This document shows positions 6,878 to 50,348 of a stretch of DNA of 64,000 bases, in pieces. The notes under the pieces were generated by a model. It was not told where the DNA came from, did not search any database, and saw only the letters and a program-made list of their open reading frames with translations. Location: IMG/VR virus record IMGVR_UViG_3300042484_001802. One strand, given 5' to 3'. Made by a program: the position numbers and the translations under genes. The stretch's first letter is position 1, and the number at the start of each line of letters is the position of its first letter. This stretch comes from a virus.

Positions 6878-6887
6878 AATTAAAAAT

Positions 6888-9957: not shown

Positions 9958-9993
9958 TTTTTATTTTCAAAGATTTTTATTTATATTACCAAT

Positions 9994-15329: not shown

Positions 15330-15330
15330 A

Positions 15331-16746: not shown

Positions 16747-16751
16747 TAACT

Positions 16752-17486: not shown

Positions 17487-17494
17487 CATATTTT

Positions 17495-28038: not shown

Positions 28039-29160
28039 TTGGAAAACAAGGAAATATTAAAAGATTACGTTTGCTTAATGCCATTCTTATCCACCGACGT
28101 TCAGCAAGCATCACAATTCGTTTGTTGCCCATCTTGGTGCTTTAAAAGTTTAAGAGTAGATGAGAATGGCGAAGAAGAAGATTGGGCATCTTACTTTGAC
28201 ACTAGCGCAGACGTAATGAGGAACTGGACATCAACGCCAGCACATGACATTAGAAAATCAATGGTTGATGGTTCATACAGACATTGCAATCATGTAGTGT
28301 GTCCAAGATTAAATCAATTAATCAATGGTAGTGAGACCACGCCATATATGTTTATGAAGAAGGAAGAATTTCAAAAAACCTTTAACATATACAATGAGGA
28401 AGATTTAAAAAAGTTTGACACGCCACCAGAAGAAATATTGTTTGGGTTTGATAGAAGTTGCAATCTTAAATGTCCTAGCTGTAGGGTAAACTTAATACCA
28501 AATGACAATGTCGAATCTGAGGATTATAAAAATAAATTACATCTACTAAACTCAATCGAGAAGAATTTTGCTAGTAATTTAAAAAGAATAATGATAACCG
28601 GTAGTGGTGATCCGTTCTATTCTAAAATCTATCGCGATTACTTAATAAATTTTGACAGTAGTAAGTACCCCAAGTTAGAAGCGTTACAGATTATAACCAA
28701 TGGTAACTTATTAAACGAAAAAATGTGGAATTCAATGAAAGCAACTCCACATATTAAAATCATTGAGATTAGTATTGATGCCGGAACTAAAGACACATAT
28801 GAGAACAAAACAAGGTTAAATGGTAAATGGGATGTGTTAATGGAAAATCTACGTTTTTTAAGTACCCAGAATCACATTATTGAGGAGTTTGTGTTATCAA
28901 TGGTTGTTAGTAAACACAACTATAAAGAAATGTATACATTTTACGAATTGATAACAAACATATTTAAAAATTCAAATTTTAAATGGGGACTATCAATCAA
29001 CTATAGACAATTGGTTGATTGGGGCACATTTTCTAAAGAAACATTAGAAGAATTACAGGTTTTCAACATAGAACACCCTGATTATCAAGATTTTATGTCT
29101 GAATTAAAAAAAATACACAACCAGCCGTTTGTTAATCATAATTTCAACCATCTTCTATAG
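28039..29160 (+). CDS. Radical SAM protein (TTG start) with N-terminal Cys cluster
   Basis: CLMPF...CCPSW...C...CP; DRSCNLKCPSCR; ITGSGDPF; ISIDAG. Confidence 0.9.
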   Translation: MENKEILKDYVCLMPFLSTDVQQASQFVCCPSWCFKSLRVDENGEEEDWASYFDTSADVMRNWTSTPAHDIRKSMVDGSYRHCNHVVCPRLNQLINGSETTPYMFMKKEEFQKTFNIYNEEDLKKFDTPPEEILFGFDRSCNLKCPSCRVNLIPNDNVESEDYKNKLHLLNSIEKNFASNLKRIMITGSGDPFYSKIYRDYLINFDSSKYPKLEALQIITNGNLLNEKMWNSMKATPHIKIIEISIDAGTKDTYENKTRLNGKWDVLMENLRFLSTQNHIIEEFVLSMVVSKHNYKEMYTFYELITNIFKNSNFKWGLSINYRQLVDWGTFSKETLEELQVFNIEHPDYQDFMSELKKIHNQPFVNHNFNHLL

Positions 29161-29192
29161 GTTTTTTGATTTTTTTTAGTTATATTAGTAAT

Positions 29193-29627
29193 ATGATATA
29201 CTGGTTAACAGGCCAACCTGGCGCAGGAAAAACAACCTTAGCAAAATACTTAGTGGAATACTTTCCGAAAGATGAGGTTACTCACATCGATGGAGATGAC
29301 TTAAGGGACATCTTTAAAAACAAGGACTATTCCATAACAGGTAGAAGATTAAACATCCAAAGAGCACAATACATTGCACAATTCATGCATAGTAAGGGAC
29401 ATAATGTTATTGTGTCCTTAGTTTCACCATATCGAGACCAAAGAGAAGAATTTAAATTTAGCACATCGGTTGTTGAGATTTATGTACACACCACAGAAGA
29501 TAGAGGTAGGAACCAATTTCATGTTGAGGAATATGAACCACCATTAGAAAATTTTATAGACATAGATACAACAATAAAAAACGAAACAGATTCGTATTTT
29601 GAACTATTAAAAAAATTATCATTATGA
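29193..29627 (+). CDS. cysC: Adenylyl-sulfate (APS) kinase, compact form
   Basis: IYWLTGQPGAGKTT, IDGDDLR, SLVSPYRDQR, EIYV, YEPP. Confidence 0.85.
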   Translation: MIYWLTGQPGAGKTTLAKYLVEYFPKDEVTHIDGDDLRDIFKNKDYSITGRRLNIQRAQYIAQFMHSKGHNVIVSLVSPYRDQREEFKFSTSVVEIYVHTTEDRGRNQFHVEEYEPPLENFIDIDTTIKNETDSYFELLKKLSL

Positions 29628-30139
29628 TGACAAATGGTATTATCATTGACAATTTTTTAGACAATGTTGATGAAATAAGAGAGGAAGCGTTGTTATTAGA
29701 TTATACTAAATCATTACCCGAAAGTGAAGGTTGGAAAGGGTTTAGGTGTTTAAATGGAAACATGTTGACACTTGATTTACATGAAAAAATTAAAGAAAAG
29801 TTAGTTGAAACTAATATAAAATTTGATAATTGTGATATGAGGTGTTTTTTTCATTATACATTGGAAGAACATAATGTAGGTAAAAAAAACACACATCGTG
29901 ATTATGGTTTTGATTATGCTGGGGTTTTATACCTAGCACCAAACCCACAAAAAAATTCAGGTACGTCTTTTTATAATGATTTAGGTGAAGAAACCGGTTA
30001 CTTGGAAAACGTTTATAATAGATTAGTAATTTATCCAGCGAATGAGTTACACTCTTTAAAAGAATCTTTTGGTAACGATATTAATAATGGTAGATTAACT
30101 TTCACGTTTTTTTGTAAATTAAAAAATAACAATATATGA
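29624..30139 (+). CDS. 2OG-Fe(II) oxygenase-like protein (DUF6445-type)
   Basis: IIDNFLDN.DEIRE.AL...HRD..YAGVLYL.P....GTSFY...NVYNRLVIY....H....G....GRL. Confidence 0.75.
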   Translation: MMTNGIIIDNFLDNVDEIREEALLLDYTKSLPESEGWKGFRCLNGNMLTLDLHEKIKEKLVETNIKFDNCDMRCFFHYTLEEHNVGKKNTHRDYGFDYAGVLYLAPNPQKNSGTSFYNDLGEETGYLENVYNRLVIYPANELHSLKESFGNDINNGRLTFTFFCKLKNNNI

Positions 30140-30516
30140 GTAAGAAATATGCAATGTACATCGGTAGGTGGCAAAATTGGCATAAAGGTCACGAATGGTT
30201 GATCCGTCAACAAATGGACCAAGGTAAGAACATATGGGTAGCTATTAGGGATGTTGAAGTTGACGAGAACAACCCTAAAACAGCTCAAGAGGTTTTTCAA
30301 ATGTTAATCCAGGAGCCCTTTTTTAACGAGAATTTTGATAAGATTTTACTATCAATTATCCCAGATATTGAATCGGTTAATTATGGTAGAGGTGTTGGTT
30401 ACGATGTTATTTATCACGAGCCACCGGCGGATGTTGCGGTAATAAGCGGAACTGCTATTAGAACTGGACATATGACCGCTGATGGCTCAATAAAATATGA
30501 CCAAACAAAAGGATAA
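30136..30516 (+). CDS. Minimal HxGH nucleotidyltransferase (cytidylyltransferase superfamily)
   Basis: IGRWQNWHKGH; PDIESVNYGRGVGY; ISGTAIR. Confidence 0.75.
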   Translation: MSKKYAMYIGRWQNWHKGHEWLIRQQMDQGKNIWVAIRDVEVDENNPKTAQEVFQMLIQEPFFNENFDKILLSIIPDIESVNYGRGVGYDVIYHEPPADVAVISGTAIRTGHMTADGSIKYDQTKG

Positions 30517-30731
30517 TGATTGTAGAACGTAAACGACATATAGCCAAAACAATATCCTATCGTATTATAAGCACTATAATAGGTTTCCTTATAATGTGGT
30601 GGGTTAGTGGATCTATTAAGATTGGTGCAACCTTTGGTGTGGCTGAATTAGTATACAAACCTATTCAATATTACCTACATGAAAGGATTTGGTATAGATG
30701 GATAAAGTTCGGGGTAAAAGATAAAAAATAA
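30516..30731 (+). CDS. DUF2061-like small membrane protein
   Basis: RHIAKTISYRII...YYLHERIW. Confidence 0.8.
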   Translation: MIVERKRHIAKTISYRIISTIIGFLIMWWVSGSIKIGATFGVAELVYKPIQYYLHERIWYRWIKFGVKDKK

Positions 30732-30755: not shown

Positions 30756-32243
30756 ATGAGAACAGTATTGATAGGATCAGATTTTATGTACGATAAGGAT
30801 GGTAATTTAAGACCCATTGAAATAAACACTGCGGTTGGTTGGGATGGTCCCGAAAAAGTCGAGGAAGATGTTGATTGTTTGGATTTAACAAATTTATATC
30901 AATTTGTTGAGGATAATAATTTCCAAACGATACATTATGTTGGTGATATTGGTCCATTACACGTGACATTAATGACACATTATAGCGGAAGTTCTGTTAC
31001 ATATGAATTTCACGGGGTTGGTGCAACTTCCATTACAGTTCCATACATAGAAGATACTGAAACGACTTTAATTATTAGGAGTGCATATGACACAACAGCA
31101 CTAGTGGATGACACATATTGTAAGGATAAAATAGAGTTCATGAATCTAATTAAAGATTCTTCTTTTGGCTCCCAATTTGCGTACATTGACGAAAATAACA
31201 CATTGGTGTCAAATATCACATCTATAAATGATAACGGCGAACACCCTAATTTTATTTTAAAATCTAGATTTCCAGGTTATGACAAGTTAATTTATCCAAA
31301 ATTTTTTAAAGTTACAACTCAATCTGAATTAGACACTATAATAGCAAATAATGTTACAAGTGAGTATTTTTTAATGGAGTACCTATGTAACGTCAATAAA
31401 CTATGGGAAGGGCATTTAACGGTGATAAGAAGTTTAAACATTTTAGTCCCACCAAATTTAGAATCAATTCAAATTGGCCAATATACAAAATTGAATCAAA
31501 ATATGTTACTAGATAATGTGACATATGATTCAATCACATTTGAAGTATATTCAGATTTCAAAGAGAGTTATAGTACAAACCCACCTACCGGTTTTCAACC
31601 TAAATTATTGAATACTGATATGGTAGAAATGGCAGATGGGACATTAAAAACTGCATTGGATTTACAAATTGGGGACGTTATTAAAACAATTGAAATACCA
31701 AATGAAAAGGGAACTAGTATAGATAGTTACGTATCCTCCGAATTTGGGCTTACGTACGATACGTTGGTAAGTGATGCAATATATACAACTAATGTCGTAA
31801 CCAAAAAACAAAAAGTAAACACCTTAACTTTTATAAATGAATTAACATTTGAAGATGCTAGTACCTGGGAAGATACTATGGGCTCAAAGTATTTGATAGA
31901 CAGAGAAGGTGTGGTTATGTTTAAATCATTATGGGGGATATTTCCAGGAGATGTGGTTATATTATTAGATACTACTGATGATAATATAAATTTTGTAAGA
32001 AAAACAGTTACATCAAATATTCAAGTTAAGAGAGTGTTCTCTGGTTGGTTTATTTCAGTTGATACCGCTATGTTATTTTTAACTAAAACAGCCGGGTCAA
32101 CCAATAACGAATCATATGTTTCAATTGAACATAACCTTATATCTTGTCCCAATTGGACATGTACAAACGCTTGCTGGTCCATCTGTCCATCATGTCCGAA
32201 GTATATGTCTTGTCAATCTAATTACTGTTTTCCAGTATGTTAA
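30756..32243 (+). CDS. Circularly permuted ATP-grasp-like domain + Hint domain + C-terminal 8-Cys peptide
   Basis: aa1-282: DFMYDKDGNLRPIEIN, FILKSR, YFLMEY. aa283-460: MVEMADGTLK..DLQIGDVI...VSIEHN. aa461-495: Cys-rich tail. Confidence 0.65.
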   Translation: MRTVLIGSDFMYDKDGNLRPIEINTAVGWDGPEKVEEDVDCLDLTNLYQFVEDNNFQTIHYVGDIGPLHVTLMTHYSGSSVTYEFHGVGATSITVPYIEDTETTLIIRSAYDTTALVDDTYCKDKIEFMNLIKDSSFGSQFAYIDENNTLVSNITSINDNGEHPNFILKSRFPGYDKLIYPKFFKVTTQSELDTIIANNVTSEYFLMEYLCNVNKLWEGHLTVIRSLNILVPPNLESIQIGQYTKLNQNMLLDNVTYDSITFEVYSDFKESYSTNPPTGFQPKLLNTDMVEMADGTLKTALDLQIGDVIKTIEIPNEKGTSIDSYVSSEFGLTYDTLVSDAIYTTNVVTKKQKVNTLTFINELTFEDASTWEDTMGSKYLIDREGVVMFKSLWGIFPGDVVILLDTTDDNINFVRKTVTSNIQVKRVFSGWFISVDTAMLFLTKTAGSTNNESYVSIEHNLISCPNWTCTNACWSICPSCPKYMSCQSNYCFPVC

Positions 32244-32272: not shown

Positions 32273-32362
32273 ATGGCAACAATTATATCAAATACAGACA
32301 TCAATACTTTAAACACCACAATTACAACAATAGGTAGTTTAATTGTAACAGCAAACAGTTAG
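32273..32362 (+). CDS. 29-aa Thr/Ile/Asn-rich micropeptide (absent from the ORF track)
   Basis: MATIISNTDINTLNTTITTIGSLIVTANS; A-rich leader; fills the gap between two genes. Confidence 0.6.
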   Translation: MATIISNTDINTLNTTITTIGSLIVTANS

Positions 32363-32385: not shown

Positions 32386-32919
32386 ATGATACATTTCATA
32401 CCAAATATTCTTACTAAGGATGAGTGTGAATACTTAACGAATCAATTTGATTTCGAAAGAAAATATCAAATCTCGGCGGATAATGAATATACTGGCACCA
32501 ATATATCATATGGGTTTGCCCCTTCATTTGCGTTTAATACCTATTTAAATAAATTAAAATCAAAAGTGTTAGAATATAACAATAATTTTGATGATTTATT
32601 CAATGTAAACACATTTGTTAGGGAATATATGAACACCTCAATGTTAAAAAAACATTTAGATAGAAAAGACATTAGTGTTACTATGTCTATATGTTTAGAA
32701 TCCACAATAAATAAAGAATGGCCGTTATGTGCGGAAATCGGAAATAAGGAATATTGTTTCAACACAAATATTGGTGACGGTATTTTATTATTTGATGCGG
32801 ATAAAATCACACATTGGAGGGAACCCTTAATATGTCTGGAGAAAGAAAGAGTTGTCCAATTTTTTTTACATTGGAAACCTTCTGATTACGTCGCAAAAAA
32901 AACAAAATCATTATTATAA
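32386..32919 (+). CDS. 2OG-Fe(II) oxygenase
   Basis: REY....LKKHLDR...SVTM.....WPL...GD...HWREP...QFFLHW. Confidence 0.8.
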   Translation: MIHFIPNILTKDECEYLTNQFDFERKYQISADNEYTGTNISYGFAPSFAFNTYLNKLKSKVLEYNNNFDDLFNVNTFVREYMNTSMLKKHLDRKDISVTMSICLESTINKEWPLCAEIGNKEYCFNTNIGDGILLFDADKITHWREPLICLEKERVVQFFLHWKPSDYVAKKTKSLL

Positions 32920-32930
32920 AAAAATAAATT

Positions 32931-33515
32931 ATGCCATTTACATATACAATAGAGTCAACCTTTTTAACAAAAGAAGAATGTGATTTAATATTAGATTTTT
33001 CATTAAAAGAATTAAAATTAGTACCATCGGAAATTCTTACCAATTACACCGATGGTGGCGACGTTAATACCGATATTAGAAAATCAAATCAAGTATTTTA
33101 CCCCTATTATAAAAAATTTCCATTTTTATTAGAAAAAATGAGTAAATTATTAAATCAACATATTTTTGTTAAAGGGTTCGATTTAGATTTTAAAGAAAGT
33201 CAATTTCAGTTTACTGAGTATCATCCAGGCGGACATTTTGGCTGGCATAGAGATGCTCATGGAAAAAAAATAACGGATTATGACAGGTATTGTTCATTAG
33301 TGATACAACTAAATGATGAGTATGGAGAGGGTGATTTACAAATAAAAGATGATCAGAATGGGACCCTAACAGTTGAAAAGGGTACAGGAAATTTGATATT
33401 ATTTTTATCAAATATTGAACATAGAGTAGTGCCAGTAAAAAGTGGGATTAGATATACACTAGTTAATTGGGTGAAATTAAAACAAAAAAAAGATTATAAA
33501 AAAACACTTTTATAG
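32931..33515 (+). CDS. 2OG-Fe(II) oxygenase (PKHD/prolyl hydroxylase-like)
   Basis: QFTEY..G.HF.WHRD...SLVIQLND.Y..GDL...HRV.PV.SG.RY.LV.W. Confidence 0.9.
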   Translation: MPFTYTIESTFLTKEECDLILDFSLKELKLVPSEILTNYTDGGDVNTDIRKSNQVFYPYYKKFPFLLEKMSKLLNQHIFVKGFDLDFKESQFQFTEYHPGGHFGWHRDAHGKKITDYDRYCSLVIQLNDEYGEGDLQIKDDQNGTLTVEKGTGNLILFLSNIEHRVVPVKSGIRYTLVNWVKLKQKKDYKKTLL

Positions 33516-33516
33516 C

Positions 33517-33834
33517 ATGAAAATAAATTTTAAAGAAATATTAAATGCTTGGTATAATGTTATAAATCACACACCAGAACAAAAGGAATTAGCAGATAAA
33601 AGATTCGCTATATGTTTAGAATGCCCCTCTAAAATAGAAATTTTAAAAGACAAGAAATGGCTTTTTAAATGTAAAGAATGTGGTTGTCCTTTAGGCGCAA
33701 AAGTTTACACTGAAACAACATACCTTACTAAAGACAAATCTTGTCCACTTGATAAATGGAAAGAAGTTGAAATGGAATTTATGAGTAAACATAGTGACAC
33801 GATTAAATATAAAACTAAAAAAACATTTCTTTAG
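33517..33834 (+). CDS. Small Cys-rich zinc-binding protein (DUF6171-like)
   Basis: RFAICLECP...CKECGCPL.AK......CPLDKW. Confidence 0.7.
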   Translation: MKINFKEILNAWYNVINHTPEQKELADKRFAICLECPSKIEILKDKKWLFKCKECGCPLGAKVYTETTYLTKDKSCPLDKWKEVEMEFMSKHSDTIKYKTKKTFL

Positions 33835-33836
33835 TT

Positions 33837-34526
33837 ATGGGTTATTTAATAAACGATGACCTTTTATGGGTGATCACCCCTAAATGTGCTAGCGACTCAA
33901 TAGAAACTGCATTATTAAACTCAAGTTTAAATTTAAAAAAATATAGCGAGCACTTCGAACAACATACCCATATGCATATACCACTAAACGAGTGCTTAAC
34001 TAAGTTTGGTAAAAAAGAAACAATATGTATCACTAGAGATTGGTTTGAAAAATGGTTAAGTTCATTAAATTTTATTTGGGATTATATAGAATTATATAGT
34101 GAATATGAACCAGTATGTAAATGGGAGGACATCAATAATAATGTTATTTATGAGATATTTGATAGCGAATTTGTAAATAAACTTTACTCATTAAATCATA
34201 CCTCTAATGAAGAATGTTTTTTGAAATTATTAAAAAGGAACACCGAAGATATTATAAACGTACCCAAAGAAATTTATGGAATAATAATAACTCTAATATC
34301 TGAACGCTATTGGAAAAGTAATGTAAAATGCACATATGAATTTGATATTAAAAAATTAGACGATTTTGTTAATTTCATTGAAAATAGGTTTGGTGAAAAA
34401 TTAATAATAGAAAAGAAAAACGTATCTACAAAAAGACCAAATAAATTAATAGTAAATAATGAATTAAAATCTTTTGTTTGGGAAAAATTTGAAAAAATAT
34501 TTGAAAAAAGAAATCAATTAATTTAA
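33837..34526 (+). CDS. Sulfotransferase-like protein
   Basis: 5'-PSB-like PKCASDSI and 3'-PB-like ITRDWFEKWLS. Confidence 0.65.
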   Translation: MGYLINDDLLWVITPKCASDSIETALLNSSLNLKKYSEHFEQHTHMHIPLNECLTKFGKKETICITRDWFEKWLSSLNFIWDYIELYSEYEPVCKWEDINNNVIYEIFDSEFVNKLYSLNHTSNEECFLKLLKRNTEDIINVPKEIYGIIITLISERYWKSNVKCTYEFDIKKLDDFVNFIENRFGEKLIIEKKNVSTKRPNKLIVNNELKSFVWEKFEKIFEKRNQLI

Positions 34527-34527
34527 T

Positions 34528-35196
34528 ATGGCAACTATTTGGACATTTGGGGATTCATTTACTTCTGGAGACGGGTGTGTAGAAAACCTAAGAATTAGAG
34601 ACGGCGATTTTAGATATTATAACGAATATAAAAAACTAGGTAGTGATATATGGCCTAATTTATTAGGTAAAACTTTAGGATATGACGTAAAAAATCTAGG
34701 AAAAAGTGGTGCAAGTAATGACTATATTTTAGATTCTATTATTGATAATTTTAACATGATAGAACCAAATGATGTGGTGATAATTGAAAAAACATTTTAC
34801 CAAAGATTTGATATACCTAAATCAACGGGTGATGGGTTTCAAACAATTTACGCTGAAGGACTTTATCAACTTTCTATTGATTTAAAAATGGAAAGATATT
34901 CTTGTGAAGATAAATTAGAAATTGAAACGGTATTAAATTATGGTGTTTTATTTTCCGACAATAAATTATTTAAAGAAAGACAAGATAAACGATTTGAATT
35001 TATACAAGCACAATTAAATAATAAAACAGATAAAATATTAATATGGGATGTTTTAGATTTTTTAGACGGTAAAATTGAAACGATAGGTCAACACACTGAG
35101 GGTAATATAAAAGATTATCATTTTAGTTTTAATGGTCATAAAAGATTTAGCGAATTTCTATACAAAAAATTATATATTAAACCCTCATTAGTTTAA
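34528..35196 (+). CDS. SGNH/GDSL-like hydrolase or acyltransferase
   Basis: FGDSFT, NLGKSGASNDYI, DYHFSFNGH. Confidence 0.7.
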   Translation: MATIWTFGDSFTSGDGCVENLRIRDGDFRYYNEYKKLGSDIWPNLLGKTLGYDVKNLGKSGASNDYILDSIIDNFNMIEPNDVVIIEKTFYQRFDIPKSTGDGFQTIYAEGLYQLSIDLKMERYSCEDKLEIETVLNYGVLFSDNKLFKERQDKRFEFIQAQLNNKTDKILIWDVLDFLDGKIETIGQHTEGNIKDYHFSFNGHKRFSEFLYKKLYIKPSLV

Positions 35197-35928
35197 ATGT
35201 TAGTCGATAAAAAATTTATTTTTATAAGTTTACCAAGATGTGCATCAACATCATTTATGATTACGTGTGTTAAAAACAAAATACCAATAGAGCATTTCAA
35301 CTCAAACCATGATAATCAGTTGATTAAAATCAATGAATGGGAAAAAATGGGTAATGAAGAATTGGCAGATAGATTAGTACATGCACACGAACCATTACAT
35401 ATGTTACAAGAAAAATTTGGGACGAGCAACCAAATTATTTCAATAAGACGAAATAAGTACGATAGATTTTTATCTTTATGGAAACACATCATAGACGAAT
35501 TACACAGAATTAACAAACTTGATATTGCTGACATCTTTTCAAAATTAACAACTAATGATCTGTTTGATAATATTAAACCAAATGACATTTATAATTCGGA
35601 AAATAGAGTTAAAGTTATTGATAATTTTTTATCTAGGTTAGAAATTTCAAAAGAAGAATCTTACACTAAAAATATGTTAGATATATTGTTTATGCCAGTA
35701 GTTGAACTTACAAATAACGACCCAAATATTATCTGGTTTGATATTAACAGTTTGAGAGATTTAGAAAATTGGGTGTCAAAAAAACTAAATAGAGATTTTA
35801 AAATGGAAAAAATAAATTCAAGTAAACATTTTAATTCAGTAATGGAGAACGATGATAATTTTAAACAGAAATATGATAATCTTTATAAAGAATTTGACCA
35901 AAGAAAAACAACTAAAACATTATTGTAA
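35197..35928 (+). CDS. Sulfotransferase-like protein
   Basis: FIFISLPRCASTSF; IRRNKYDRFLSLW; KINSS. Confidence 0.7.
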   Translation: MLVDKKFIFISLPRCASTSFMITCVKNKIPIEHFNSNHDNQLIKINEWEKMGNEELADRLVHAHEPLHMLQEKFGTSNQIISIRRNKYDRFLSLWKHIIDELHRINKLDIADIFSKLTTNDLFDNIKPNDIYNSENRVKVIDNFLSRLEISKEESYTKNMLDILFMPVVELTNNDPNIIWFDINSLRDLENWVSKKLNRDFKMEKINSSKHFNSVMENDDNFKQKYDNLYKEFDQRKTTKTLL

Positions 35929-37097
35929 TGGAAATTCAATTTTGGTATAGCGATATTTTACCAAATACAAATATTAGAAATTCAATCGAAAAAATAGATA
36001 GTGACATCTTATTTAAAAATATCCACACCGATAAGGTAGATGTTACAAAATTAAATTTTTTATTTTTTTTGTTAGAAACTGAATGGACTAATTCCGATAT
36101 CCCAAACATAGCGTATACTCATTCTAGTGAATTTATTGAATTACTAATTAAATTACAATCTGAAAATTTCTATTTTATGTGTAATAATTCTGGGGAAGCC
36201 GAACTTTGGGTGGATAATTTATCCTTGAATTTTTTTAATTTGTTAAAAAAAAATAAAATTGATTTTAACAGATTAATAATTGTAAATAACGATTCATCTA
36301 AAATTGGTATAGGTAAAACAAAATATGGGGATTTTATATTAAACACCTGTTTTTTTCCTAATTTCTTTTTATCTACCTATGAGCATTTAAAGTCATATGT
36401 AACTGAATTAAACCCTAACACCATACCTGATAAAAAATTCTTATGTTTAAATAGAAGAATGGGTTATGAAAAATATAAATTAATCGAGAGGTTATATCAT
36501 ATGGGGTTGTTAAATGACACCAGATTTTCTTGGGTAAAAAATAGCACGAATAAAAATCTGTTAAATAAAGAATTACTTAATGAATTAAACATAGATGTTG
36601 ATAACTTTAACCCTATTCAGTTAGAAGATGATGTAATGTATGGTGCTGATTTAGTTATGGAAAAGTATCTTTACACCATAAACCCCAAATGGTATTATAA
36701 AAGTAAAGTTAATATTATATTGGAAACAATGCTATACCCAAATTCAATTCATCTGACAGAAAAAACCTGGAAAGCAATTTATTTAGGTGTCCCGTTTGTT
36801 ATATATTCACCATCTAAACACTATCTTAAAACCTTAAGGGATATGGGATTCAAGACATTTAATTCTGTGATTAATGAGGATTATGATGAGATGCTAGGTA
36901 AAGATAAAATAACACAAGTTATAAAAAGCGCTGAAGAACTGGCTAGTATCTATGACACCCCCAAAGTATTAGATATATGTAGATTTAACCAAGAATTATA
37001 TTTTAATTTTCAACACAGAAAAAAAATATATAATGAGTTTTTTTTAAATAAAATTTGTGATGTTAAAAACTTAACAATTCCTAAAACATTAATTTAA
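35928..37097 (+). CDS. Putative GT-B/GT10-like protein (paralogue 3)
   Basis: KKFLCLNR, IILET...LTEKTWKA...PF...LRDMGFKTF..VINEDYD. Confidence 0.5.
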   Translation: MEIQFWYSDILPNTNIRNSIEKIDSDILFKNIHTDKVDVTKLNFLFFLLETEWTNSDIPNIAYTHSSEFIELLIKLQSENFYFMCNNSGEAELWVDNLSLNFFNLLKKNKIDFNRLIIVNNDSSKIGIGKTKYGDFILNTCFFPNFFLSTYEHLKSYVTELNPNTIPDKKFLCLNRRMGYEKYKLIERLYHMGLLNDTRFSWVKNSTNKNLLNKELLNELNIDVDNFNPIQLEDDVMYGADLVMEKYLYTINPKWYYKSKVNIILETMLYPNSIHLTEKTWKAIYLGVPFVIYSPSKHYLKTLRDMGFKTFNSVINEDYDEMLGKDKITQVIKSAEELASIYDTPKVLDICRFNQELYFNFQHRKKIYNEFFLNKICDVKNLTIPKTLI

Positions 37098-38147
37098 ATG
37101 GGTAATAAAATTGATTTAAAAAATTATACGTGTAGTGTGCCATTTACATCATTAGAAATACATAACAATGTTTGTTTTGTGTGCTGTCCATCCTGGTTAC
37201 CAAACAAAGTAGAACTTAGTGAAATTCCATTAAAAGATGTTTATAATAGCGAACCAATTATTGATATAAGAAACTCGATATTAGATGGTTCATTTAGATA
37301 TTGTAGTCAAGAGCTTTGTCCTTATTTAAGTAAATTAGTGAAGTATGGTGCGGAATCTGGGCCAGTCACTTTAAAATCAAATTCAAATGTTAATAGCCCT
37401 ATTGTAAAAAATAACGCACCAGATTATTTGATGATGAATTTTGATAGAACATGTAACTACAAATGTCCATCATGTAGAGTTGATTTAATAGTTGAAAATA
37501 GTGAGGGTATAAAACGTGTAGAAAAAACAATAGAGGAGATTGATAATCACTACTCGAAATATGTTAAAACCCTATATATTACTGGATCAGGGGATCCGTT
37601 TGTTTCTGTCGGATTCAGAAATTATCTAAGAAATTTTAACCCTAAAAAATACCCAAACTTAAATTCCATACACCTACACACAAATGCGTCTATGTGGAAT
37701 AAAGAAATGTGGGATAGTATGCCAAACATACACGGATATGTCCACTCTTGTGAAATTAGCATCGACGCTGGTACAAAAGACACCTATGAAAATAAAACCA
37801 GGTTGGGTGGTAAATGGGATAATTTAATTGATAATTTAAAATTCATAAGCACTCTACCAATTTCAATTAAAACATCATTTGTGGTTCAAGATTCCAATTA
37901 CATGGAAATGGGTATTTTTTACAACTTAATGTACTCAATATTTGGTAAAAGAGTAAATGTGTTTTTTGGTAAGATAACTAATTGGGGGACATTTTCAGAA
38001 GGTGAATTTAAATTAAAACAAGTATGGGATACGGAACATCCAGAACATGAGTTATTTAAAAAAGAGTTTAATAAAGTATGGAAAAATGAAAACCTTTTTC
38101 ATAATTTATATGAGTTTATTGACAACACAAATAAAACTTTAATATAG
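37098..38147 (+). CDS. Radical SAM protein (close paralogue of 28039-29160)
   Basis: CSVPF...CCPSW; DRTCNYKCPSCR; ITGSGDPF; ISIDAGTKDTYENKTRL identical to the paralogue. Confidence 0.9.
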   Translation: MGNKIDLKNYTCSVPFTSLEIHNNVCFVCCPSWLPNKVELSEIPLKDVYNSEPIIDIRNSILDGSFRYCSQELCPYLSKLVKYGAESGPVTLKSNSNVNSPIVKNNAPDYLMMNFDRTCNYKCPSCRVDLIVENSEGIKRVEKTIEEIDNHYSKYVKTLYITGSGDPFVSVGFRNYLRNFNPKKYPNLNSIHLHTNASMWNKEMWDSMPNIHGYVHSCEISIDAGTKDTYENKTRLGGKWDNLIDNLKFISTLPISIKTSFVVQDSNYMEMGIFYNLMYSIFGKRVNVFFGKITNWGTFSEGEFKLKQVWDTEHPEHELFKKEFNKVWKNENLFHNLYEFIDNTNKTLI

Positions 38148-38708
38148 ATGAGAATTTTAATACTATCACATACAAGATGTGGTTCTACCACATTATGTAA
38201 ATGGATATCAAAAGAATTGAATTTTGAAGTAGATTATGATCATTACGATGCTAACACATTTAATTCAATTTTCATTAAAAATAATATAATAAAAAAAATT
38301 GTTATCGAAGAATACAATCCACCAAATGAAGTTATTGAAAAATTTGATAAAGTTATTTGTTTAAGTAGGGAAAATAATATTGACAGTGCCATAAGTTTTA
38401 TTAATGCTGATAACAAAAGCAGGTGGCACGACATATATGAAATAACAAATGAGTGGATTGAAGATAATAAAAATAAAATAATAGAAACTGTTTACAAATA
38501 TGAACAATTAAAAACCTTATTAAAAAATAAAGATTTATTTCAAATAACGTATGAAAATATGTATATTAATAAAATAGACGTTAATAGAGTTATTAGTTAT
38601 TTAAACATTGAAAACCCAAAACATTTGGATATGCTTGATTATGATAAAAAATATAGAAAAGACACATATACTTTAACACATGATTTTAAGAGAAAAAATA
38701 TCATTTAG
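38148..38708 (+). CDS. Stf0-like sulfotransferase
   Basis: ILILSHTRCGSTTL; LSRENNIDSAIS; ITYE. Confidence 0.65.
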   Translation: MRILILSHTRCGSTTLCKWISKELNFEVDYDHYDANTFNSIFIKNNIIKKIVIEEYNPPNEVIEKFDKVICLSRENNIDSAISFINADNKSRWHDIYEITNEWIEDNKNKIIETVYKYEQLKTLLKNKDLFQITYENMYINKIDVNRVISYLNIENPKHLDMLDYDKKYRKDTYTLTHDFKRKNII

Positions 38709-39210
38709 TAAAGATGAGTGTGATTACATAATAAATTTATCCAAAGAGTTGGATGAACTTAAACCATTTGGTTATGATGACAATGTTAATAAAGAAAAAA
38801 TAACAATTAGATATTTTGTTTGGGTTATCAATAGAAACAATAAAACCCAATGGATATTTGATAAAATTCAAACGTATTTTATAAATAAAACTAATATAAA
38901 GATAAAAAAAGAATTAGATAAAATATATATACACAAATATGACACCGGCCAACAATTTGAAAAACATGCTGACACATATTATAAAACACAAATACACAAT
39001 GTAGGGGTATGTTTAAACAATGATTATGATGGAGGTGAATTTGTTTTATATAATCCAGAAGAACAATTACCAAAAGAAACGGGTAACATATATACTTTCC
39101 CTAGTCAAAGAATACATGAAGTAAAAAAAATAATAAAGGGTGAAAGGTGGAGCATTATTGGATTTTTACATATTGATAATTTAGATTTCCCTAAAAAATT
39201 ACTAATATGA
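38680..39210 (+). CDS. 2OG-Fe(II) oxygenase
   Basis: KY..G..F..HAD...LN.DYDGGEF...HEVK.I.KGERWS. Confidence 0.85.
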   Translation: MILREKISFSKDECDYIINLSKELDELKPFGYDDNVNKEKITIRYFVWVINRNNKTQWIFDKIQTYFINKTNIKIKKELDKIYIHKYDTGQQFEKHADTYYKTQIHNVGVCLNNDYDGGEFVLYNPEEQLPKETGNIYTFPSQRIHEVKKIIKGERWSIIGFLHIDNLDFPKKLLI

Positions 39211-39764
39211 AAATTGGAATAACAGGACATTCTAACGGAATTGGAAATGACATTTATTCAAATTTAATAAAAGAATATGATGTTATAGGATTTAGTAGAA
39301 GTAATGGTTTTGATATTAAAAATACGGATAAAATTATAGAACAATTGGATGATTGTGATATTTTTATAAACAACGCTTACGAAGGAAACTATCAAACAAT
39401 ATTATTTGAATTAATTTTTGATAAATGGAAATTTTTACCAAAAACAATTATTAATATGAATAGCAGTTGTGTGTATCATTCATCCGATTGGTCGCCAGAA
39501 TATGCAAATAATAAAAAAGAGTTAAAAGAAGTATCTTTAAATGCGATTAGAAATAATAAAAATAAAAAAGTTAGGGTCATAAATTTATATCCATCCACCT
39601 TATCAACTCATATGGGGTTTGAAAGTTTAAATAAATTAGATACTGAAAATCTTGCAAAAATTATAAATTGGTTAATAAAACAACCACAAGAAATAGAAAT
39701 TAGAGAGATGAGTATATATTGTACAACATTGGAGAAAGAATTTAAAACAAATAAATTAATATGA
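39207..39764 (+). CDS. Short-chain dehydrogenase/reductase, compact
   Basis: ITGHSNGIG, FINNA, YANNK (YxxxK). Confidence 0.75.
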   Translation: MKIGITGHSNGIGNDIYSNLIKEYDVIGFSRSNGFDIKNTDKIIEQLDDCDIFINNAYEGNYQTILFELIFDKWKFLPKTIINMNSSCVYHSSDWSPEYANNKKELKEVSLNAIRNNKNKKVRVINLYPSTLSTHMGFESLNKLDTENLAKIINWLIKQPQEIEIREMSIYCTTLEKEFKTNKLI

Positions 39765-40531
39765 AATCAATAAAATTTTGGAATAAAAGCGGATTCGATG
39801 TTGCAACTTATAAATGGAATTTATCAGAAAGACGTAATAAAACATTTAATGGCTCTGGTTCGGATGATAGTGAAACCAATACCTACACATATAATGAACT
39901 AGGATTCAGAGGTGATTCAATATACAAGGATGGTTTTAGAATTCTGTCTGTCGGTTGTTCACATACGGAAGGTGTGGGGGTAAATGACTGGGAAACTTGG
40001 CCGCATATATTTTCTAGGTTAATACCTAATGGTATTGATTTAAATGCTGGGTTTGGTGGTAGAAGTAATGATTACATTGCTAGGTGTATTGTGTCCTTAA
40101 TTGACACCTTTAGACCCAATCTGGTTAATCTAATGTACACATACCCCTCAAGAAAAGAATACTACAAGTTTAATGGGGATTTAGAGCCCTTTCATATGAC
40201 ACCCTGGGGATATTTCAAAGAAGATTCGGAAGGTGTTGATGAATACAAGGCAATCGCAAAGATAACCCATGATGAAAATGATTTGATTAATTGGTATAAA
40301 AATCATTTATTAATAACCAATTTCCTATCACTAAGAAAAATCCCATACACTTGGAATGGTTCGTTTCTAATGGATGATGTTATTTCAGATAAACATCGTT
40401 TTGATGGTGACTATGGCAACTTCAGAGAGTTTTCCGTTGACGGTAAACATGCAACAGGAAAACACAATGAAGAATATGCCAAAAATTTATATGACTTCAT
40501 TAAGAAAAACTTCCCAATATATATCCCTTAG
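39761..40531 (+). CDS. SGNH-like phage protein
   Basis: YNELGFRG, VGCSHTEG.G, NAGFGGRSNDYI, DGKH. Confidence 0.6.
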   Translation: MKSIKFWNKSGFDVATYKWNLSERRNKTFNGSGSDDSETNTYTYNELGFRGDSIYKDGFRILSVGCSHTEGVGVNDWETWPHIFSRLIPNGIDLNAGFGGRSNDYIARCIVSLIDTFRPNLVNLMYTYPSRKEYYKFNGDLEPFHMTPWGYFKEDSEGVDEYKAIAKITHDENDLINWYKNHLLITNFLSLRKIPYTWNGSFLMDDVISDKHRFDGDYGNFREFSVDGKHATGKHNEEYAKNLYDFIKKNFPIYIP

Positions 40532-46114: not shown

Positions 46115-49100
46115 ATGAATATATTTGACGCACACATATCGGGATCATTATCCGTATCAAGTTCAGCCGAAATTTCGGGTGATTTAAAAGTTTTAGGAAC
46201 AATTAGTGGTTCCTTTAGTGGTGATGGCTCTAATATCACAAACATCCCAGCGGGTGGTGTTGTTGGACTTAATTTAACACGAATAGCTGACGGTGCATCA
46301 ACAGCATCAATTTCAAATACAGATGGTTTAAGAATTAATACAAATTCAGAAATTACTGGTTCATTAATTATAACCGGTGATTTAATTATAAGTGGAACAT
46401 CTTTTAATGCCGCGACCTCAGGTACATCTGGCACATCAGGAACCTCAGGTACATCTGGAACCTCAGGGTCTTCAGGTTCAAGTGGCACATCTGGTACTAG
46501 TGGAACCTCAGGTTCAAATGGTAGTTCAGGCACGAGTGGTTCATCAGGTTCATCTGGAAGTTCAGGTACGTCAGGTACTAGTGGAAGTAGCGGTTCTTCA
46601 GGAACATCTGGTTCTTCGGGAACATCTGGTTCAAGTGGTAGTTCTGGAACTAGTGGAAGTAGTGGTTCTTCAGGAACCGCTGGAACATCAGGAACCTCAG
46701 GTTCAAGTGGTAGTTCTGGAACTTCAGGTTCTAGTGGATCTAGCGGAACCGCTGGTACAAGTGGCACATCGGGATCTTCTGGTTCTAACGGGTCCTCAGG
46801 TACTTCAGGAACGAGCGGTACATCAGGTTCTAGTGGAACATCAGGTTCATCAGGGTCTAGTGGAACTAGTGGTAGTTCTGGCTCATCAGGAACATCAGGT
46901 TCTAACGGGTCGTCAGGTACTTCAGGAACAAGCGGAACATCAGGTTCTTCAGGAACAAGCGGTTCATCAGGATCTAGTGGAACATCTGGGTCTTCAGGGT
47001 CAAGCGGAACATCAGGTTCTTCAGGAAGTTCAGGAACATCCGGAAGTTCAGGGTCTAGTGGTACAGCGGGGACATCAGGAACCTCTGGTTCTAGTGGATC
47101 TAGTGGATCTAGCGGAACCGTAACAATGAGCGGAACACAAGACAATGGTGTTCTAACACTTAATGGTTCCTCACCAAACGTAACTGCGGAAAATAATTTA
47201 AGATTTGATGGTTCACTTTTAACCGTTGTTGGTAACGAAACAATATCTGGTTCCTTAATTGTGACAAACAATTTTACAGTATTAGGTTCATCCTCAATAA
47301 CATACGTAACATCATCTCAATTAAGAGTTGAAGACAATATTATCACAGTAAACACTGCTAGCCCTGGATCTAGATTTGGTGGACTAGAAGTTCATGATTC
47401 AGGATCGGTTGGTATTGCTACTGGTTCAATTCTTTGGGATTCTGTTAACAATAGATGGATTTATCAAAACTCAAGTGAGGCGGGTTATGGTGGCGGTGTA
47501 CTATTGTCAGGTCCTAGAAGTTCTGGTTCACTAGGTAGTGAATTAACATTAACTAGTGGTAGAGTTGCAAAGTCAGCGGGCGGAGACCACTTAAATGATT
47601 CAAATATAACAGACAACGGTACAACCGTTTCGATAAATTCAAATACAGAAATCACTGGTTCATTAATTGTTACTGGTGATAAAATAACAGTAAAAGCGGT
47701 TGGTGGTGATGAGGGTGGTGAGATTTTATTAGGTAAAGCAGTAACCAATACAACACTTGTTGGTGATGGTGTTACTGTAGATATTTGGCAAAATAGATTA
47801 AGATTTTTTGAACAGGGCGGAACTGCTCGAGGTGCATATATTGATATCTCAAGTTTAGCGGCAGGTGTTGGTACCAACTTGGTTGGTGCTGGTTCATCAG
47901 GTACTTCTGGAACTAGTGGTACCTCTGGCACATCGGGTTCTAGTGGAACATCAGGATCTAATGGTTCGTCTGGTACGTCAGGTTCATCAGGAACAAGTGG
48001 TACAAGTGGTAGTTCAGGATCTAATGGTTCATCTGGCACGTCAGGTTCTTCAGGTTCTAGCGGAACATCGGGATCTAATGGTTCATCTGGTACGTCAGGA
48101 ACATCGGGTTCTAACGGATCTAGCGGAACCTCAGGTTCTTCAGGTTCAAGCGGAACATCTGGTTCATCTGGAAGTTCTGGTTCAAGTGGTACATCTGGTT
48201 CATCTGGTAGTTCGGGTTCATCAGGAACAAGTGGAAGTTCGGGAACATCGGGTTCTAACGGATCTAGCGGAACCTCAGGTTCTTCAGGCAGTTCAGGATC
48301 AAGTGGAACGTCAGGGTCTTCTGGTTCTAGTGGCACTTCGGGTACTTCAGGAAGCTCAGGAACGAGTGGATCTTCGGGTTCTAGTGGGTCTAGTGGAACA
48401 TCAGGTTCTAACGGATCTAGTGGTACGTCGGGTTCATCAGGTTCTAGCGGTTCTAGTGGAACATCAGGTTCTTCTGGTTCTAGCGGAAGTTCAGGAACAA
48501 GTGGATCTTCAGGGTCTAGTGGTTCAAGTGGAACCAGTGGTAGTTCGGGGAGTTCTGGCTCAAGTGGAACATCTGGGTCTTCAGGAAGTTCTGGTTCTAG
48601 TGGGTCTTCAGGAAGTTCAGGTACTTCTTTCGCCAATACTTTTAATATAAATCAAAATTTAGGAACAAGTAACTCGCCAACATTTGGTGGTTTAACAATT
48701 ACAGGTGGTGGTTCAGTTAGTACAACATTGACAGGTGCTAACGTTGGTGATTTATTGTATGCTTCAATTGCAGATAACGATTTTTTTAGATTAAGAGTTG
48801 GTGGTACCGCAACAAATGCCGGTTATGTTGAAATAGCAACTTCCGATGATGGTACAGAACCAATATATGTTAGACAATATACGGGTGTTTTTAGTAGTTT
48901 AACTAGGACTGCAACATTACTAGATGGTAGTGGTAACACATCATTTCCAGGTACAATTACAGCCCCAACATTCTCAGGAGCACTATCCGGAAACGCAACC
49001 ACTGCAACTACTGCGGGTAGTGCACCAAACGCTAGTAATTTAAACGCATCTTATGGTGTATCAACGGGTAATGGAAACGGATTAAAATTTTGGGGAGGTT

Positions 49101-49525
49101 CCGACACGTATAAAATTCATATGGGTAATGCCGCCGAATATTGGTATGGACCTGTGACAGATTATTCCATAAAGTGTAATATAGATAGTGTTGGTTCAAC
49201 AAGAGGTTTTACTTGGGGACAAAGTGGAGTAACACCAATTGCCGCGTTAAACGTAGGAAATGGAAATTATCAAATTGCGGGAACATTCACATCAGGTGGA
49301 AGTATATTACCATTAAGTAATGGTACGTTAAACTTAGGTTCATCTGGAGCAAGATGGAACACATTATTTACATCGGATTTATCGTTATCAAACGGTATTG
49401 GTGATTACACAATTGTTGAGGGTGAGGATGATTTGTTCTTATATAATAATAAAAGAAATAAAGTATATAAATTTATGTTGCAAGAAGTAAAACCAGAAGA
49501 TGCAACACCAAAGCGACCAGAATAA
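46115..49525 (+). CDS. Long fibre protein 2 with two Gly-X-X Ser/Thr tracts (paralogue of 860-4063)
   Basis: 1136 aa; shared central domain; C-terminal NLGSSGARWNTLFTSDLSLSN..YTIVEGEDDLFLYNNK. Confidence 0.75.
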   Translation: MNIFDAHISGSLSVSSSAEISGDLKVLGTISGSFSGDGSNITNIPAGGVVGLNLTRIADGASTASISNTDGLRINTNSEITGSLIITGDLIISGTSFNAATSGTSGTSGTSGTSGTSGSSGSSGTSGTSGTSGSNGSSGTSGSSGSSGSSGTSGTSGSSGSSGTSGSSGTSGSSGSSGTSGSSGSSGTAGTSGTSGSSGSSGTSGSSGSSGTAGTSGTSGSSGSNGSSGTSGTSGTSGSSGTSGSSGSSGTSGSSGSSGTSGSNGSSGTSGTSGTSGSSGTSGSSGSSGTSGSSGSSGTSGSSGSSGTSGSSGSSGTAGTSGTSGSSGSSGSSGTVTMSGTQDNGVLTLNGSSPNVTAENNLRFDGSLLTVVGNETISGSLIVTNNFTVLGSSSITYVTSSQLRVEDNIITVNTASPGSRFGGLEVHDSGSVGIATGSILWDSVNNRWIYQNSSEAGYGGGVLLSGPRSSGSLGSELTLTSGRVAKSAGGDHLNDSNITDNGTTVSINSNTEITGSLIVTGDKITVKAVGGDEGGEILLGKAVTNTTLVGDGVTVDIWQNRLRFFEQGGTARGAYIDISSLAAGVGTNLVGAGSSGTSGTSGTSGTSGSSGTSGSNGSSGTSGSSGTSGTSGSSGSNGSSGTSGSSGSSGTSGSNGSSGTSGTSGSNGSSGTSGSSGSSGTSGSSGSSGSSGTSGSSGSSGSSGTSGSSGTSGSNGSSGTSGSSGSSGSSGTSGSSGSSGTSGTSGSSGTSGSSGSSGSSGTSGSNGSSGTSGSSGSSGSSGTSGSSGSSGSSGTSGSSGSSGSSGTSGSSGSSGSSGTSGSSGSSGSSGSSGSSGTSFANTFNINQNLGTSNSPTFGGLTITGGGSVSTTLTGANVGDLLYASIADNDFFRLRVGGTATNAGYVEIATSDDGTEPIYVRQYTGVFSSLTRTATLLDGSGNTSFPGTITAPTFSGALSGNATTATTAGSAPNASNLNASYGVSTGNGNGLKFWGGSDTYKIHMGNAAEYWYGPVTDYSIKCNIDSVGSTRGFTWGQSGVTPIAALNVGNGNYQIAGTFTSGGSILPLSNGTLNLGSSGARWNTLFTSDLSLSNGIGDYTIVEGEDDLFLYNNKRNKVYKFMLQEVKPEDATPKRPE
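46418..47119 (+). repeat. (Ser-Gly-Thr/Ser)n coding repeat, ~234 aa
   Basis: Gly every third residue; occasional Asn/Ala. Confidence 0.95.
47891..48628 (+). repeat. (Ser-Gly-Ser/Thr/Asn)n coding repeat, ~246 aa
   Basis: Gly every third residue. Confidence 0.95.
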
Positions 49526-49574: not shown

Positions 49575-50348
49575 ATGCCTTTAGATATTAATAGTAATAT
49601 AATCAGTTCATCAGATATAACAAGTACTGGTATTTTTAAAACTAAAGTGCAGAGAGATGGGATGGTTTTACATTTAGATGCCGGTGATCTTGATTCATAT
49701 CCAGGTAGTGGAACTGCGTGGAATGATTTAAGTGGTAATGGTTATAACTTTATTATAAACGCATCGGCTTACAATTCCTCTGGACCAAAATATATGGACT
49801 TTAATGGTTCATATGGTTGCGCAAAGAAAACAAGTTCAGATGTCCCTTTGTCTGGTAATGCAACATGTATTTGCTGGACTAGAGTTAAAAATAGTACTGC
49901 GGAATGGAGAACTTTATTACGAGGTTTAAGTTCAGGAGCAGACCACCAAGTGATTATTCAATCAGGTGCGTGGGCAATTGGTATGTACGATAACACAAAT
50001 GGTACAGGTTTTAATAGTAACGGATTTAGTCAACAAAGTTTACCAGCATATGGTACATCTTCTTGGGATATGTTAGTTTGGAGATGGTACGATGCTGAAG
50101 TTCCTTATCATCTCTTTAGTTATAATGAAACTGCGGGGGTTATACGAGGATCAATTTCAAGTTCAAACGCAAGATTTAAACATGGTTTTTGTTCTGTCGG
50201 CGCATATAATAATGGTTCACAAAATGATCCAAATGCGTCAAGCCAACCTTGGGGGGACATTGGGATGATATCACTTTATGATAGAGTTTTACACCCGTAT
50301 GAAATAAACGAATATTTTCAAGCAACAAGAGCTAGATTTGGTAGATAA
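49575..50348 (+). CDS. LamG-like domain protein
   Basis: GMVLHLDAG..SYPGSGTAWNDLSGNG...LYDRVL..EI..YF.ATRARFG. Confidence 0.8.
   Translation: MPLDINSNIISSSDITSTGIFKTKVQRDGMVLHLDAGDLDSYPGSGTAWNDLSGNGYNFIINASAYNSSGPKYMDFNGSYGCAKKTSSDVPLSGNATCICWTRVKNSTAEWRTLLRGLSSGADHQVIIQSGAWAIGMYDNTNGTGFNSNGFSQQSLPAYGTSSWDMLVWRWYDAEVPYHLFSYNETAGVIRGSISSSNARFKHGFCSVGAYNNGSQNDPNASSQPWGDIGMISLYDRVLHPYEINEYFQATRARFGR

Follow-up and report, generated by a model that had tools for sequence, protein, structure and literature searches.

The peroxisomal targeting signal type 1 (PTS1), a C-terminal peptide of consensus [SAC]-[KRH]-[LM]-COOH, is read by the TPR domain of Pex5. The MuA signal RRKKAI-COOH is read by ClpX (PMC8138137). 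T4-like cyanophages carry tandem arrays of unrelated 2-oxoglutarate (2OG) dioxygenases, and related bacterial dioxygenase clusters are linked to sulfotransferases and 3'-phosphoadenosine-5'-phosphosulfate (PAPS) synthetases, for which peptide or metabolite modification has been proposed (Iyer et al., 2010; PMC2938197). Here, we describe a cassette of 11 genes in IMG/VR virus record IMGVR_UViG_3300042484_001802, whose products belong to several protein families and all end in a similar short, Lys-rich peptide with two terminal hydrophobic residues, in the following called the tag. The cassette (32386-39764) lies close to gene 30756, which encodes a protein with ATP-grasp and Hint domains that we call the hub. 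All coordinates are positions in the window, the whole stretch of 64,000 nucleotides that was analysed. The window is AT-rich (25-41% GC), and its genes are tightly packed and run in the same direction. The genes of the cassette and the gene that follows it are:

32386..32919 (+): tagged gene 1, family 14, 177 aa, candidate 2OG oxygenase (first-pass annotation); ends KKTKSLL; 13/13 unique homologues tagged
32931..33515 (+): tagged gene 2, 2OG-Fe(II) oxygenase (Pfam E 1e-13); ends DYKKTLL
33517..33834 (+): tagged gene 3, Cys-rich Zn-finger-like protein, 105 aa; ends KTKKTFL
33837..34526 (+): tagged gene 4, sulfotransferase-like, family 4; ends EKRNQLI; 44/46 unique homologues tagged
34528..35196 (+): tagged gene 5, SGNH/GDSL-like (weak Pfam GDSL match); ends YIKPSLV; 10/12 homologues tagged
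35197..35928 (+): tagged gene 6, family 4, paralogue of gene 4; ends KTTKTLL
35928..37097 (+): tagged gene 7, family 15, 389 aa, candidate GT10-like protein (first-pass annotation); ends TIPKTLI
37098..38147 (+): tagged gene 8, radical SAM protein (Pfam and NCBIfam); ends NTNKTLI
38148..38708 (+): tagged gene 9, sulfotransferase-like, family 5 (protein-atlas look-alikes only); ends FKRKNII; 34/35 homologues tagged
38680..39210 (+): tagged gene 10, 2OG-Fe(II) oxygenase (Pfam E 6e-11); ends FPKKLLI
39207..39764 (+): tagged gene 11, like short-chain dehydrogenases/reductases (SDR; weak Pfam adh_short match); ends FKTNKLI; 3/3 homologues tagged
39761..40531 (+): family 2 gene, untagged in the window; ends PIYIP; 22/39 unique homologues in related phages tagged

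All 11 cassette proteins have two hydrophobic residues at the very end and a Lys or Arg upstream of them. In gene order, the last four residues are KSLL, KTLL, KTFL, NQLI, PSLV, KTLL, KTLI, KTLI, KNII, KLLI and NKLI, and the distances to the next start codon are +11, +1, +2, +1, 0, -1, 0, 0, -29, -4 and -4. A first-pass annotation of the window had already listed endings and distances, and a recheck of the gene ends agrees with it exactly, including the PIYIP ending of the gene at 39761.

The frequency of the ending was scored with two definitions. The loose motif has L, I, V or M as the last residue, L, I, V, F or M as the penultimate residue, and K or R anywhere in positions -3 to -6, and the strict motif is [KR][STN][LIFMV][LIVM] at the C-terminus. 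All 11 cassette C-termini match the loose motif, compared with 3.0% of internal positions in the same proteins (binomial P = 1.6e-17). It was also present in 6 of the 58 remaining genes of the window, and the strict motif was found in 7/11 cassette genes versus 0/58 others. The possibility, raised by the first-pass annotation, that the motif is equally frequent at other C-termini is contradicted by these counts. A genome-wide comparison was made on a complete 335-kb relative (G002). The strict motif is carried by 8 of its 408 genes and the loose motif by 33. Of the 9 genes directly after the ATP-grasp/Hint gene, 7 have the loose motif, versus 26/398 elsewhere (Fisher P = 1e-6). Four strict matches of this genome lie outside the cassette, among them a SNF2 helicase, a nuclease and a sugar dehydrogenase, and look like chance. 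In genomes of this type, the background of the loose motif is 6-10% at C-termini and 2-3% at internal positions. The cassette stands far above the background at C-termini. The same does not hold for some weaker upstream matches that had been pointed out earlier (22403, 23146, 26235), which do not rise above this background. The shared C-terminal ending of the cassette proteins is confirmed as real.

Related IMG/VR loci, 146 in all, were used to follow the tag across protein families. For the family survey, the window and 80 loci retrieved by means of the radical SAM protein were gene-called, which gave 1,622 proteins in 340 families. The tag was distributed bimodally: 17 families were tagged in at least 70% of their members and 48 families in less than 10%. 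At least eight folds are represented among the tagged families, which comprise several 2OG oxygenase families, radical SAM proteins, two sulfotransferase-like families, the Zn-finger and SGNH proteins, SET domain proteins, the SDR family, the 389-aa family 15 and several families of unassigned fold. The tagged families are modifiers of proteins or peptides, among them SET proteins and 2OG enzymes of the prolyl-hydroxylase type. A single cassette may contain up to 13 tagged genes. About half of the family 2 homologues are tagged (see the list above), which indicates that the tag was gained or lost inside one family.

In a family-weighted sequence logo of 18 families, the last residue was I (0.66) or L (0.26) and the penultimate residue L (0.76) or I (0.16). 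At the third residue from the end, S and T together accounted for 46%, K for 26% and N for 14%; position -4 was K (0.53) or N (0.21), and positions -5 to -7 were rich in Lys. The consensus is therefore roughly K-x-[K/N]-[S/T/K/N]-[L/I]-[I/L]-COOH. No residue was ever present beyond the hydrophobic pair, so recognition probably involves the free carboxylate. Among the database homologues of the 2OG oxygenase at 32931, 119 of 120 have T and then two hydrophobic residues at the C-terminus, in most cases as KKTL[LIVM]. In the AlphaFold2 (AF2) model of this protein, the last strand ends at residue 185, and the tail (residues 186-194) is coil or disordered, with a predicted local distance difference test (pLDDT) score of 45 for residues 191-194. 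A cyanophage homologue ends six residues after the last strand and has no tag. The tag has the features of a short linear motif on a flexible C-terminal tail.

The first-pass annotation had drawn attention to homologues and domain ends that could serve as internal controls, and all of them behave as it had described. The alignment of the radical SAM proteins shows that 37098 extends 8 residues past its untagged paralogue 28039. The paralogues of gene 7 outside the cassette are untagged as well, 18096 ending NINNRV and 24853 ending EFLNK, and this was generally the case when a paralogue of a tagged family was encoded elsewhere than in the cassette. In the Zn-finger family, the domain is conserved up to CPLxKWxxV[D/E], is followed by a linker that varies in length and sequence, and the terminus is then conserved again as the tag. 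The [S/T]-hydrophobic-hydrophobic end is kept in 120 of the 120 database homologues listed for this family, so no untagged Zn-finger homologue was available among them to relate loss of the tag to loss of the hub. The untagged genes upstream of the hub gene are:

28039..29160 (+): radical SAM paralogue outside the cassette, untagged; ends NFNHLL
29166..30731 (+): putative PAPS-supply set, untagged: adenosine-5'-phosphosulfate (APS) kinase (29166), adenylyltransferase-like (30136) and DUF2061 (30516) genes (Pfam, NCBIfam)
29624, within 29166..30731 (+): DUF6445/2OG-like gene, untagged (Pfam/NCBIfam)

By its domain content, the 29166-30731 set looks like a phage supply of PAPS for the sulfotransferase-like enzymes. 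The sulfotransferase-like labels of 33837 and 38148 are consistent with the neighbouring APS kinase gene; for 33837, Sulfotransfer_2 is carried by protein-atlas look-alikes, which is a lead only. The APS kinase, adenylyltransferase-like and DUF2061 genes adjoin the hub gene upstream in most relatives. Families 8, 10 and 11 were tagged in 0% of cases despite tight coupling to the next gene, and the carbamoyltransferase of the cluster was mostly untagged, with exceptions in 4/24. The untagged members of the cluster are enzymes that make or use small molecules.

The question of whether the signal resides in the peptide or in the nucleotides was addressed at several levels. Synonymous codons are used at the tag positions as often as in the genome at large, with Thr encoded by ACA, ACT, ACC and ACG, Leu by TTA, TTG, CTA and CTT, and Ser by both AGT and TCN. 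Nonsynonymous differences per related pair were 0.11-0.19 at positions -1, -2 and -4, compared with 0.3-0.5 in the preceding linker, and at most tag positions synonymous differences were at least as frequent. In 80 radical SAM homologues, N-K-T-L-I is kept with the codons act, aca, acc or acg for Thr, tta, ttg or cta for Leu and ata or att for Ile, and the ending stays at the stop codon while the downstream gene and its spacing vary. The first-pass annotation had interpreted the ending as a signal in the protein, tied to the C-terminus, and not as a ribosome-site artefact, and had allowed that the DNA rather than the amino acids might turn out to be conserved. The test gave the opposite, the amino acid pattern being kept while the DNA varies synonymously, and its proposal is strongly supported by the codons, the classes of gaps, the strand of the next gene and the families.

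A nucleotide-level explanation would hold that the 3' end of each gene is merely the A-rich initiation region of the next gene, which lacks a Shine-Dalgarno sequence, or a recombination junction. It is attractive in that starts in the window have no Shine-Dalgarno sequence and have A-runs at about -10 to -20, that 8 of the 11 cassette gaps are between -4 and +2, and that the genome has 25-30% GC and shows a mild overall enrichment of the loose motif at C-termini over internal positions. However, in tagged families the tag was kept in 39/42 cases in which the next start was more than 30 nt away, in 14/15 cases in which the next gene was on the opposite strand, and in 23/23 cases with an overlap of at least 8 nt, and it occurred in 0/64 tightly coupled members of untagged families. 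The tag of 38148 cannot be a leader of the next gene, because the following gene starts 29 nt before the 38148 stop codon. Codon choice within the tag is genomic, with Ser drawn from both codon families, and changes within the tag are skewed to synonymous ones. We consider this explanation extremely improbable; it is largely refuted by the bimodality of the families, the independence from the downstream gene, the codon usage and the substitution bias. These data show that the tag is under protein-level selection and is anchored to the free C-terminus.

Two features of the nucleotide sequence deserve mention in their own right. All start codons of the window have A/T-rich leaders with A-runs and no Shine-Dalgarno sequence, as in Bacteroidota-type initiation, which is a hint about the host. 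Runs of 7-8 A are present in the Lys codons of several tags, at 32895-32905, 33494-33500 and 33813-33819, 9-12 nt before the stop. These sites are potentially slippery, and their frame relation to the next gene differs between junctions.

The tag was next related to its genomic surroundings, using 66 unique loci that were fetched with the hub protein alone. Around the hub gene, the tag was found in 65-86% of proteins at the four genes that follow, in 31% just before it, and in about 5-14% beyond 12 genes. The cassette always adjoins a homologue of gene 30756. The link of the tag to gene 30756 is therefore supported by strict genomic association. The two features at the centre of the module are:

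30756..32243 (+): module hub, untagged; permuted ATP-grasp, Hint/bacterial intein-like (BIL) and Cys-rich peptide (AF2 pLDDT 83)
32273..32362 (+): conserved 29-aa open reading frame (ORF), untagged, directly after the hub gene; MATIISNTDINT...LIVTANS

Residues 1 to about 280 of the hub are predicted to form a circularly permuted ATP-grasp domain, with a Foldseek match to eukaryotic glutathione synthetase. Residues 283-460 form a Hint/BIL domain in the model, with Foldseek matches to inteins and BIL2 (comparison with inteins, VIA: Z 14.3, rmsd 2.5 Å over 145 residues). The C-terminal residues, about 35 in number, have low AF2 confidence and are hypervariable, with 8 Cys here and 6-8 Cys in the family. 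In the family alignment, H459 and N460 are invariant, as are E22 and N24, and K169 is kept in the ATP-grasp domain. Conservation within the hub is highest in the active-site motifs, and the fused peptide is hypervariable. An N-terminal Cys, Ser or Thr nucleophile is absent from the Hint domain, position 1 being K283 after P282, and the +1 residue after His-Asn is variable in the family alignment (L, G, A, N, P and others). A Lys at position 1 and a variable +1 residue exclude splicing and leave C-terminal cleavage as the only plausible reaction. By analogy with inteins, cleavage by Asn cyclization is a plausible reaction of the hub, and from its sequence the hub looks like a self-releasing peptide precursor. 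A profile of the hub gave only marginal Hint/AXH matches in PDB sequences, and a search of bacterial and archaeal genomes with the hub protein gave one match, on a 2-kb contig of a metagenome-assembled genome. Between one and three Hint domains are recognizable by Pfam in distant variants of the hub (L061, 912 aa; L078, 616 aa), which end in His-Asn-Lys. With tblastn, the 29-aa ORF was recovered from more than 50 loci, where it occupies the same position and identity falls to about 40%; distant variants of the cluster have an ORF of 50-51 aa in its stead. The product of the 29-aa ORF might act as a partner of the hub or serve it as a second substrate.

For the function of the tag, the first-pass annotation had offered docking, targeting or degradation. 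The layout of the module resembles that of clusters for RiPPs, which are peptides made on ribosomes and modified post-translationally, since a hypervariable Cys-rich end follows an invariant His-Asn and is flanked by radical SAM, 2OG, SET and sulfotransferase-like enzymes. A RiPP recognition element (RRE) or PqqD-like domain was not detected in any of the 11 tagged proteins by Pfam, which is a sequence-profile test only. The strict module association, the restriction of the tag to modifiers of macromolecules, the lack of a Pfam leader-binding domain and the docking-motif anatomy together point to a common reader within the module. We therefore tentatively favour, at slightly under an even chance, that the tag is a docking or address signal that brings the enzymes of the module to one common reader. 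It would recruit small, single-domain tailoring enzymes, and the reader would probably be the precursor (hub) protein itself, so that the Cys-rich peptide would be worked on by one enzyme after another. Such a scheme would invert the usual RiPP logic, in which each enzyme has its own leader-binding domain. The hub is a natural candidate, because its ligase fold handles the C-terminal carboxylates of peptides; the receptor could possibly be the carboxylate-binding site of the glutathione-synthetase-type ligase domain. Up to 13 interchangeable enzymes might be served in this way, each needing only a tail of 4-6 residues, and the mature Cys-rich peptide would then be released through Asn cyclization by the Hint domain. 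That the ATP-grasp/Hint precursor of the module reads the tag, and thus represents a folded "leader protein" and a new organization of peptide maturation, is possible, although we consider this specific form of the proposal rather doubtful. If docking on the precursor is correct, it would spare peptide natural-product pathways the cost of leader-binding domains and would provide a portable handle of 4-6 residues for enzyme recruitment. Docking would also make the tailoring enzymes of a widespread freshwater phage group recognizable by sequence alone.

Several observations weigh against docking on the hub. The motif is identical across hubs that share only 40% identity. Module-specific co-variation of the rare terminal residues F, M and V was sought over 125 modules, and there was no signal; modules with at least two F endings numbered 6, equal to the chance expectation. 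With an identical motif and no co-variation, a lineage-wide reader or a reader of the host fits as well as the hub. The catalytic motifs of the ATP-grasp domain are kept, suggesting that the hub is probably an active ligase with a job of its own and not a passive receptor. Furthermore, distant hubs that end in His-Asn-Lys and have no fused peptide still have tagged neighbours, and the phage lineage encodes ClpC and ClpP as an alternative reader. A single co-folding job with the hub (alignment A1) and the tagged Zn-finger protein (alignment A2) gave a score of 0.01 and counts neither way. In one 211-kb contig (G006; L139, L154), the hub gene is present twice, at a distance of about 38 kb, and each copy has its own Zn-finger and sulfotransferase-like genes after it. 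In the small module of this contig, both tags end in ...KTLF, and those of the large module end in I, L or V.

The strongest rival is a C-degron, by which the tag would hand the enzymes to a phage ClpC-ClpP or to the host ClpXP or ClpAP and limit their activity to a time window. The very C-terminus would be needed, as it is in MuA, and the combination of basic residues with a hydrophobic end has the same design as the MuA signal. The disorder of the tail in the AF2 model of 32931 would also suit a degron. A true ClpP is present in 5 of the 5 large cassette-bearing contigs searched (E about 1e-56), three of which also have a two-ring Clp ATPase, the other two contigs being about 63% complete. 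In the complete relative G002, the Clp ATPase has 670 aa and is of the ClpC type, without the N-domain and with the VGF ClpP-docking loop present. The genes are located as follows:

L086:9705-11717 (-) and L091:12530-13207 (+): genes for the ClpC-type unfoldase and ClpP of G002

Against a degron, the tag is limited to one module and is not spread over early or regulatory proteins, as seen from the background counts in the 335-kb relative, and it is missing from the PAPS enzymes encoded in the same operon. Degradation signals are also usually less sharply conserved than the L-I end is in 17 families. On balance, we regard a degron as unlikely. If the tag were a degron of the phage ClpC/ClpP, the phage would run its own proteolytic timing code.

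Two further functions have to be weighed against docking on a common reader. The tag could be a ligase handle, with the ATP-grasp domain of the hub activating the C-terminal carboxylate of the tagged proteins and joining it to an amine, such as that of a Lys side chain or of the peptide set free by the Hint domain. Eukaryotic glutathione synthetase activates the C-terminal carboxylate of a peptide, and RimK, TTL and LysX act at or beside the C-termini of proteins; the N-terminal domain of the hub has the permuted ATP-grasp fold of the former. In addition, the active-site motifs of the hub are more conserved than its own, hypervariable peptide, and the tag, strictly C-terminal, is the only conserved peptide of the module. 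However, joining one peptide to each of 2-13 enzymes would serve no obvious purpose and would imply a single turnover per hub molecule, and the fused peptide could just as well be the substrate of the ATP-grasp domain. We therefore regard a ligase handle as improbable. By analogy with the cargo peptides of encapsulins, the tag might instead direct the enzymes into the capsid or into some other compartment. A short C-terminal peptide common to unrelated enzymes is the design of encapsulin cargo, phage capsids have the HK97 fold of encapsulin shells, and the virions of jumbo phages contain many proteins. The motif is unlike known cargo-loading peptides, though, the tagged genes adjoin the ATP-grasp/Hint gene and not head genes, and cofactor-dependent hydroxylases and sulfotransferases would be odd cargo for a virion, all of which makes packaging or localization of this kind highly improbable.

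Uncultured viral contigs, which reach 335 kb, include hundreds of relatives of the window. The cassette had no match in deposited phages by blastn, and tblastn gave no match for the hub protein in 50,697 deposited phage records and none for the radical SAM protein in deposited phages. A megablast search with positions 1-20000 of the window returned a sole match of 150 nt, in a 735-kb uncultured phage. Short address tags at the termini of unrelated enzymes are known from peroxisomes, encapsulins and proteolysis. Literature searches returned no account of such a tag for a phage biosynthetic module, and no deposited phage genome matched.

The cassette is embedded in a far larger region of sugar or glycan modification, 10000-46000 (+), which contains a double epimerase/dehydratase, TPP-enzyme halves, a GT4-FkbM fusion and a heptosyltransferase-like gene and adjoins a Ser-rich fibre gene at 46115-49525. 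A second common ending, R-[YF]-G-[LIVR]-[TSV]-COOH, was noted in the window for the genes at 6203-6877, 7214-8440, 8440-9957, 49575-50348 and 50358-51185 (all +). It occurs in the variants SRYGLT, SRYGLT, TRFGIS, RARFGR and PRFGV, near fibre-like genes, and three of the genes are paralogues. This second ending may mark a common C-terminal domain of structural proteins.

In its principle, the tag resembles PTS1, the cargo peptides of encapsulins and ssrA-type degrons, without evidently belonging to any of these groups. Compared with known systems, the module shares with the cyanophage dioxygenase arrays the grouping of 2OG enzymes, but no common C-terminal tag has been described for those arrays, and the homologue inspected and its neighbours have no tail. 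The PDZ class I pattern, [S/T]-x-hydrophobic-COOH, fits 7 of the 11 tags of the window, and S or T occupies the corresponding position in not quite half of the family-weighted tags. As for a reader of this type, neither PF13180 (PDZ_2) nor Peptidase_S41 scored above cut-off anywhere in the complete 335-kb relative. Cargo peptides of encapsulins and bacterial microcompartments (BMC) are similar in that they are short, terminal, attached by a flexible linker and common to unrelated enzymes encoded beside a hub gene. The sequences differ, however, and the phage hub is an ATP-grasp/Hint protein and not an HK97-fold or BMC shell protein. Encapsulin and BMC systems have one to few cargo genes, whereas the phage module has up to 13 tagged genes. 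No shell gene was found in the module.

The ClpX C-motif-2 of MuA and the ssrA tag resemble the phage tag in their basic stretch, hydrophobic free C-terminus and unstructured tail, and related phages encode ClpP and a ClpC-type unfoldase. The tail of the 32931 model and the logo indeed have the shape of a C-degron, with an unstructured free end and hydrophobic terminal residues. The phage tag differs from MuA-type signals in being confined to one module and in its far more sharply conserved L-I end. The likeness to PTS1 lies in a very short motif at the free C-terminus, built from basic and hydrophobic residues with a helpful basic context upstream, which is common to unrelated enzymes and has one receptor. 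The PTS1 consensus itself does not apply, because the penultimate residue of the phage tag is L or I and not K, R or H. The phage tag has two terminal hydrophobic residues and a Lys at -4, belongs to one operon-like module, and occurs in a phage, which has no peroxisome. RiPP systems, finally, are comparable in having a long N-terminal part followed by a hypervariable core and surrounded by radical SAM, 2OG, methyl- and sulfotransferase enzymes. The polarity would be reversed in the phage module, in that its enzymes, without a Pfam-detected RRE, share a tail of 4-6 residues, and its "leader", as known here from sequence and models, would be a folded enzyme-plus-Hint protein of 460 aa.

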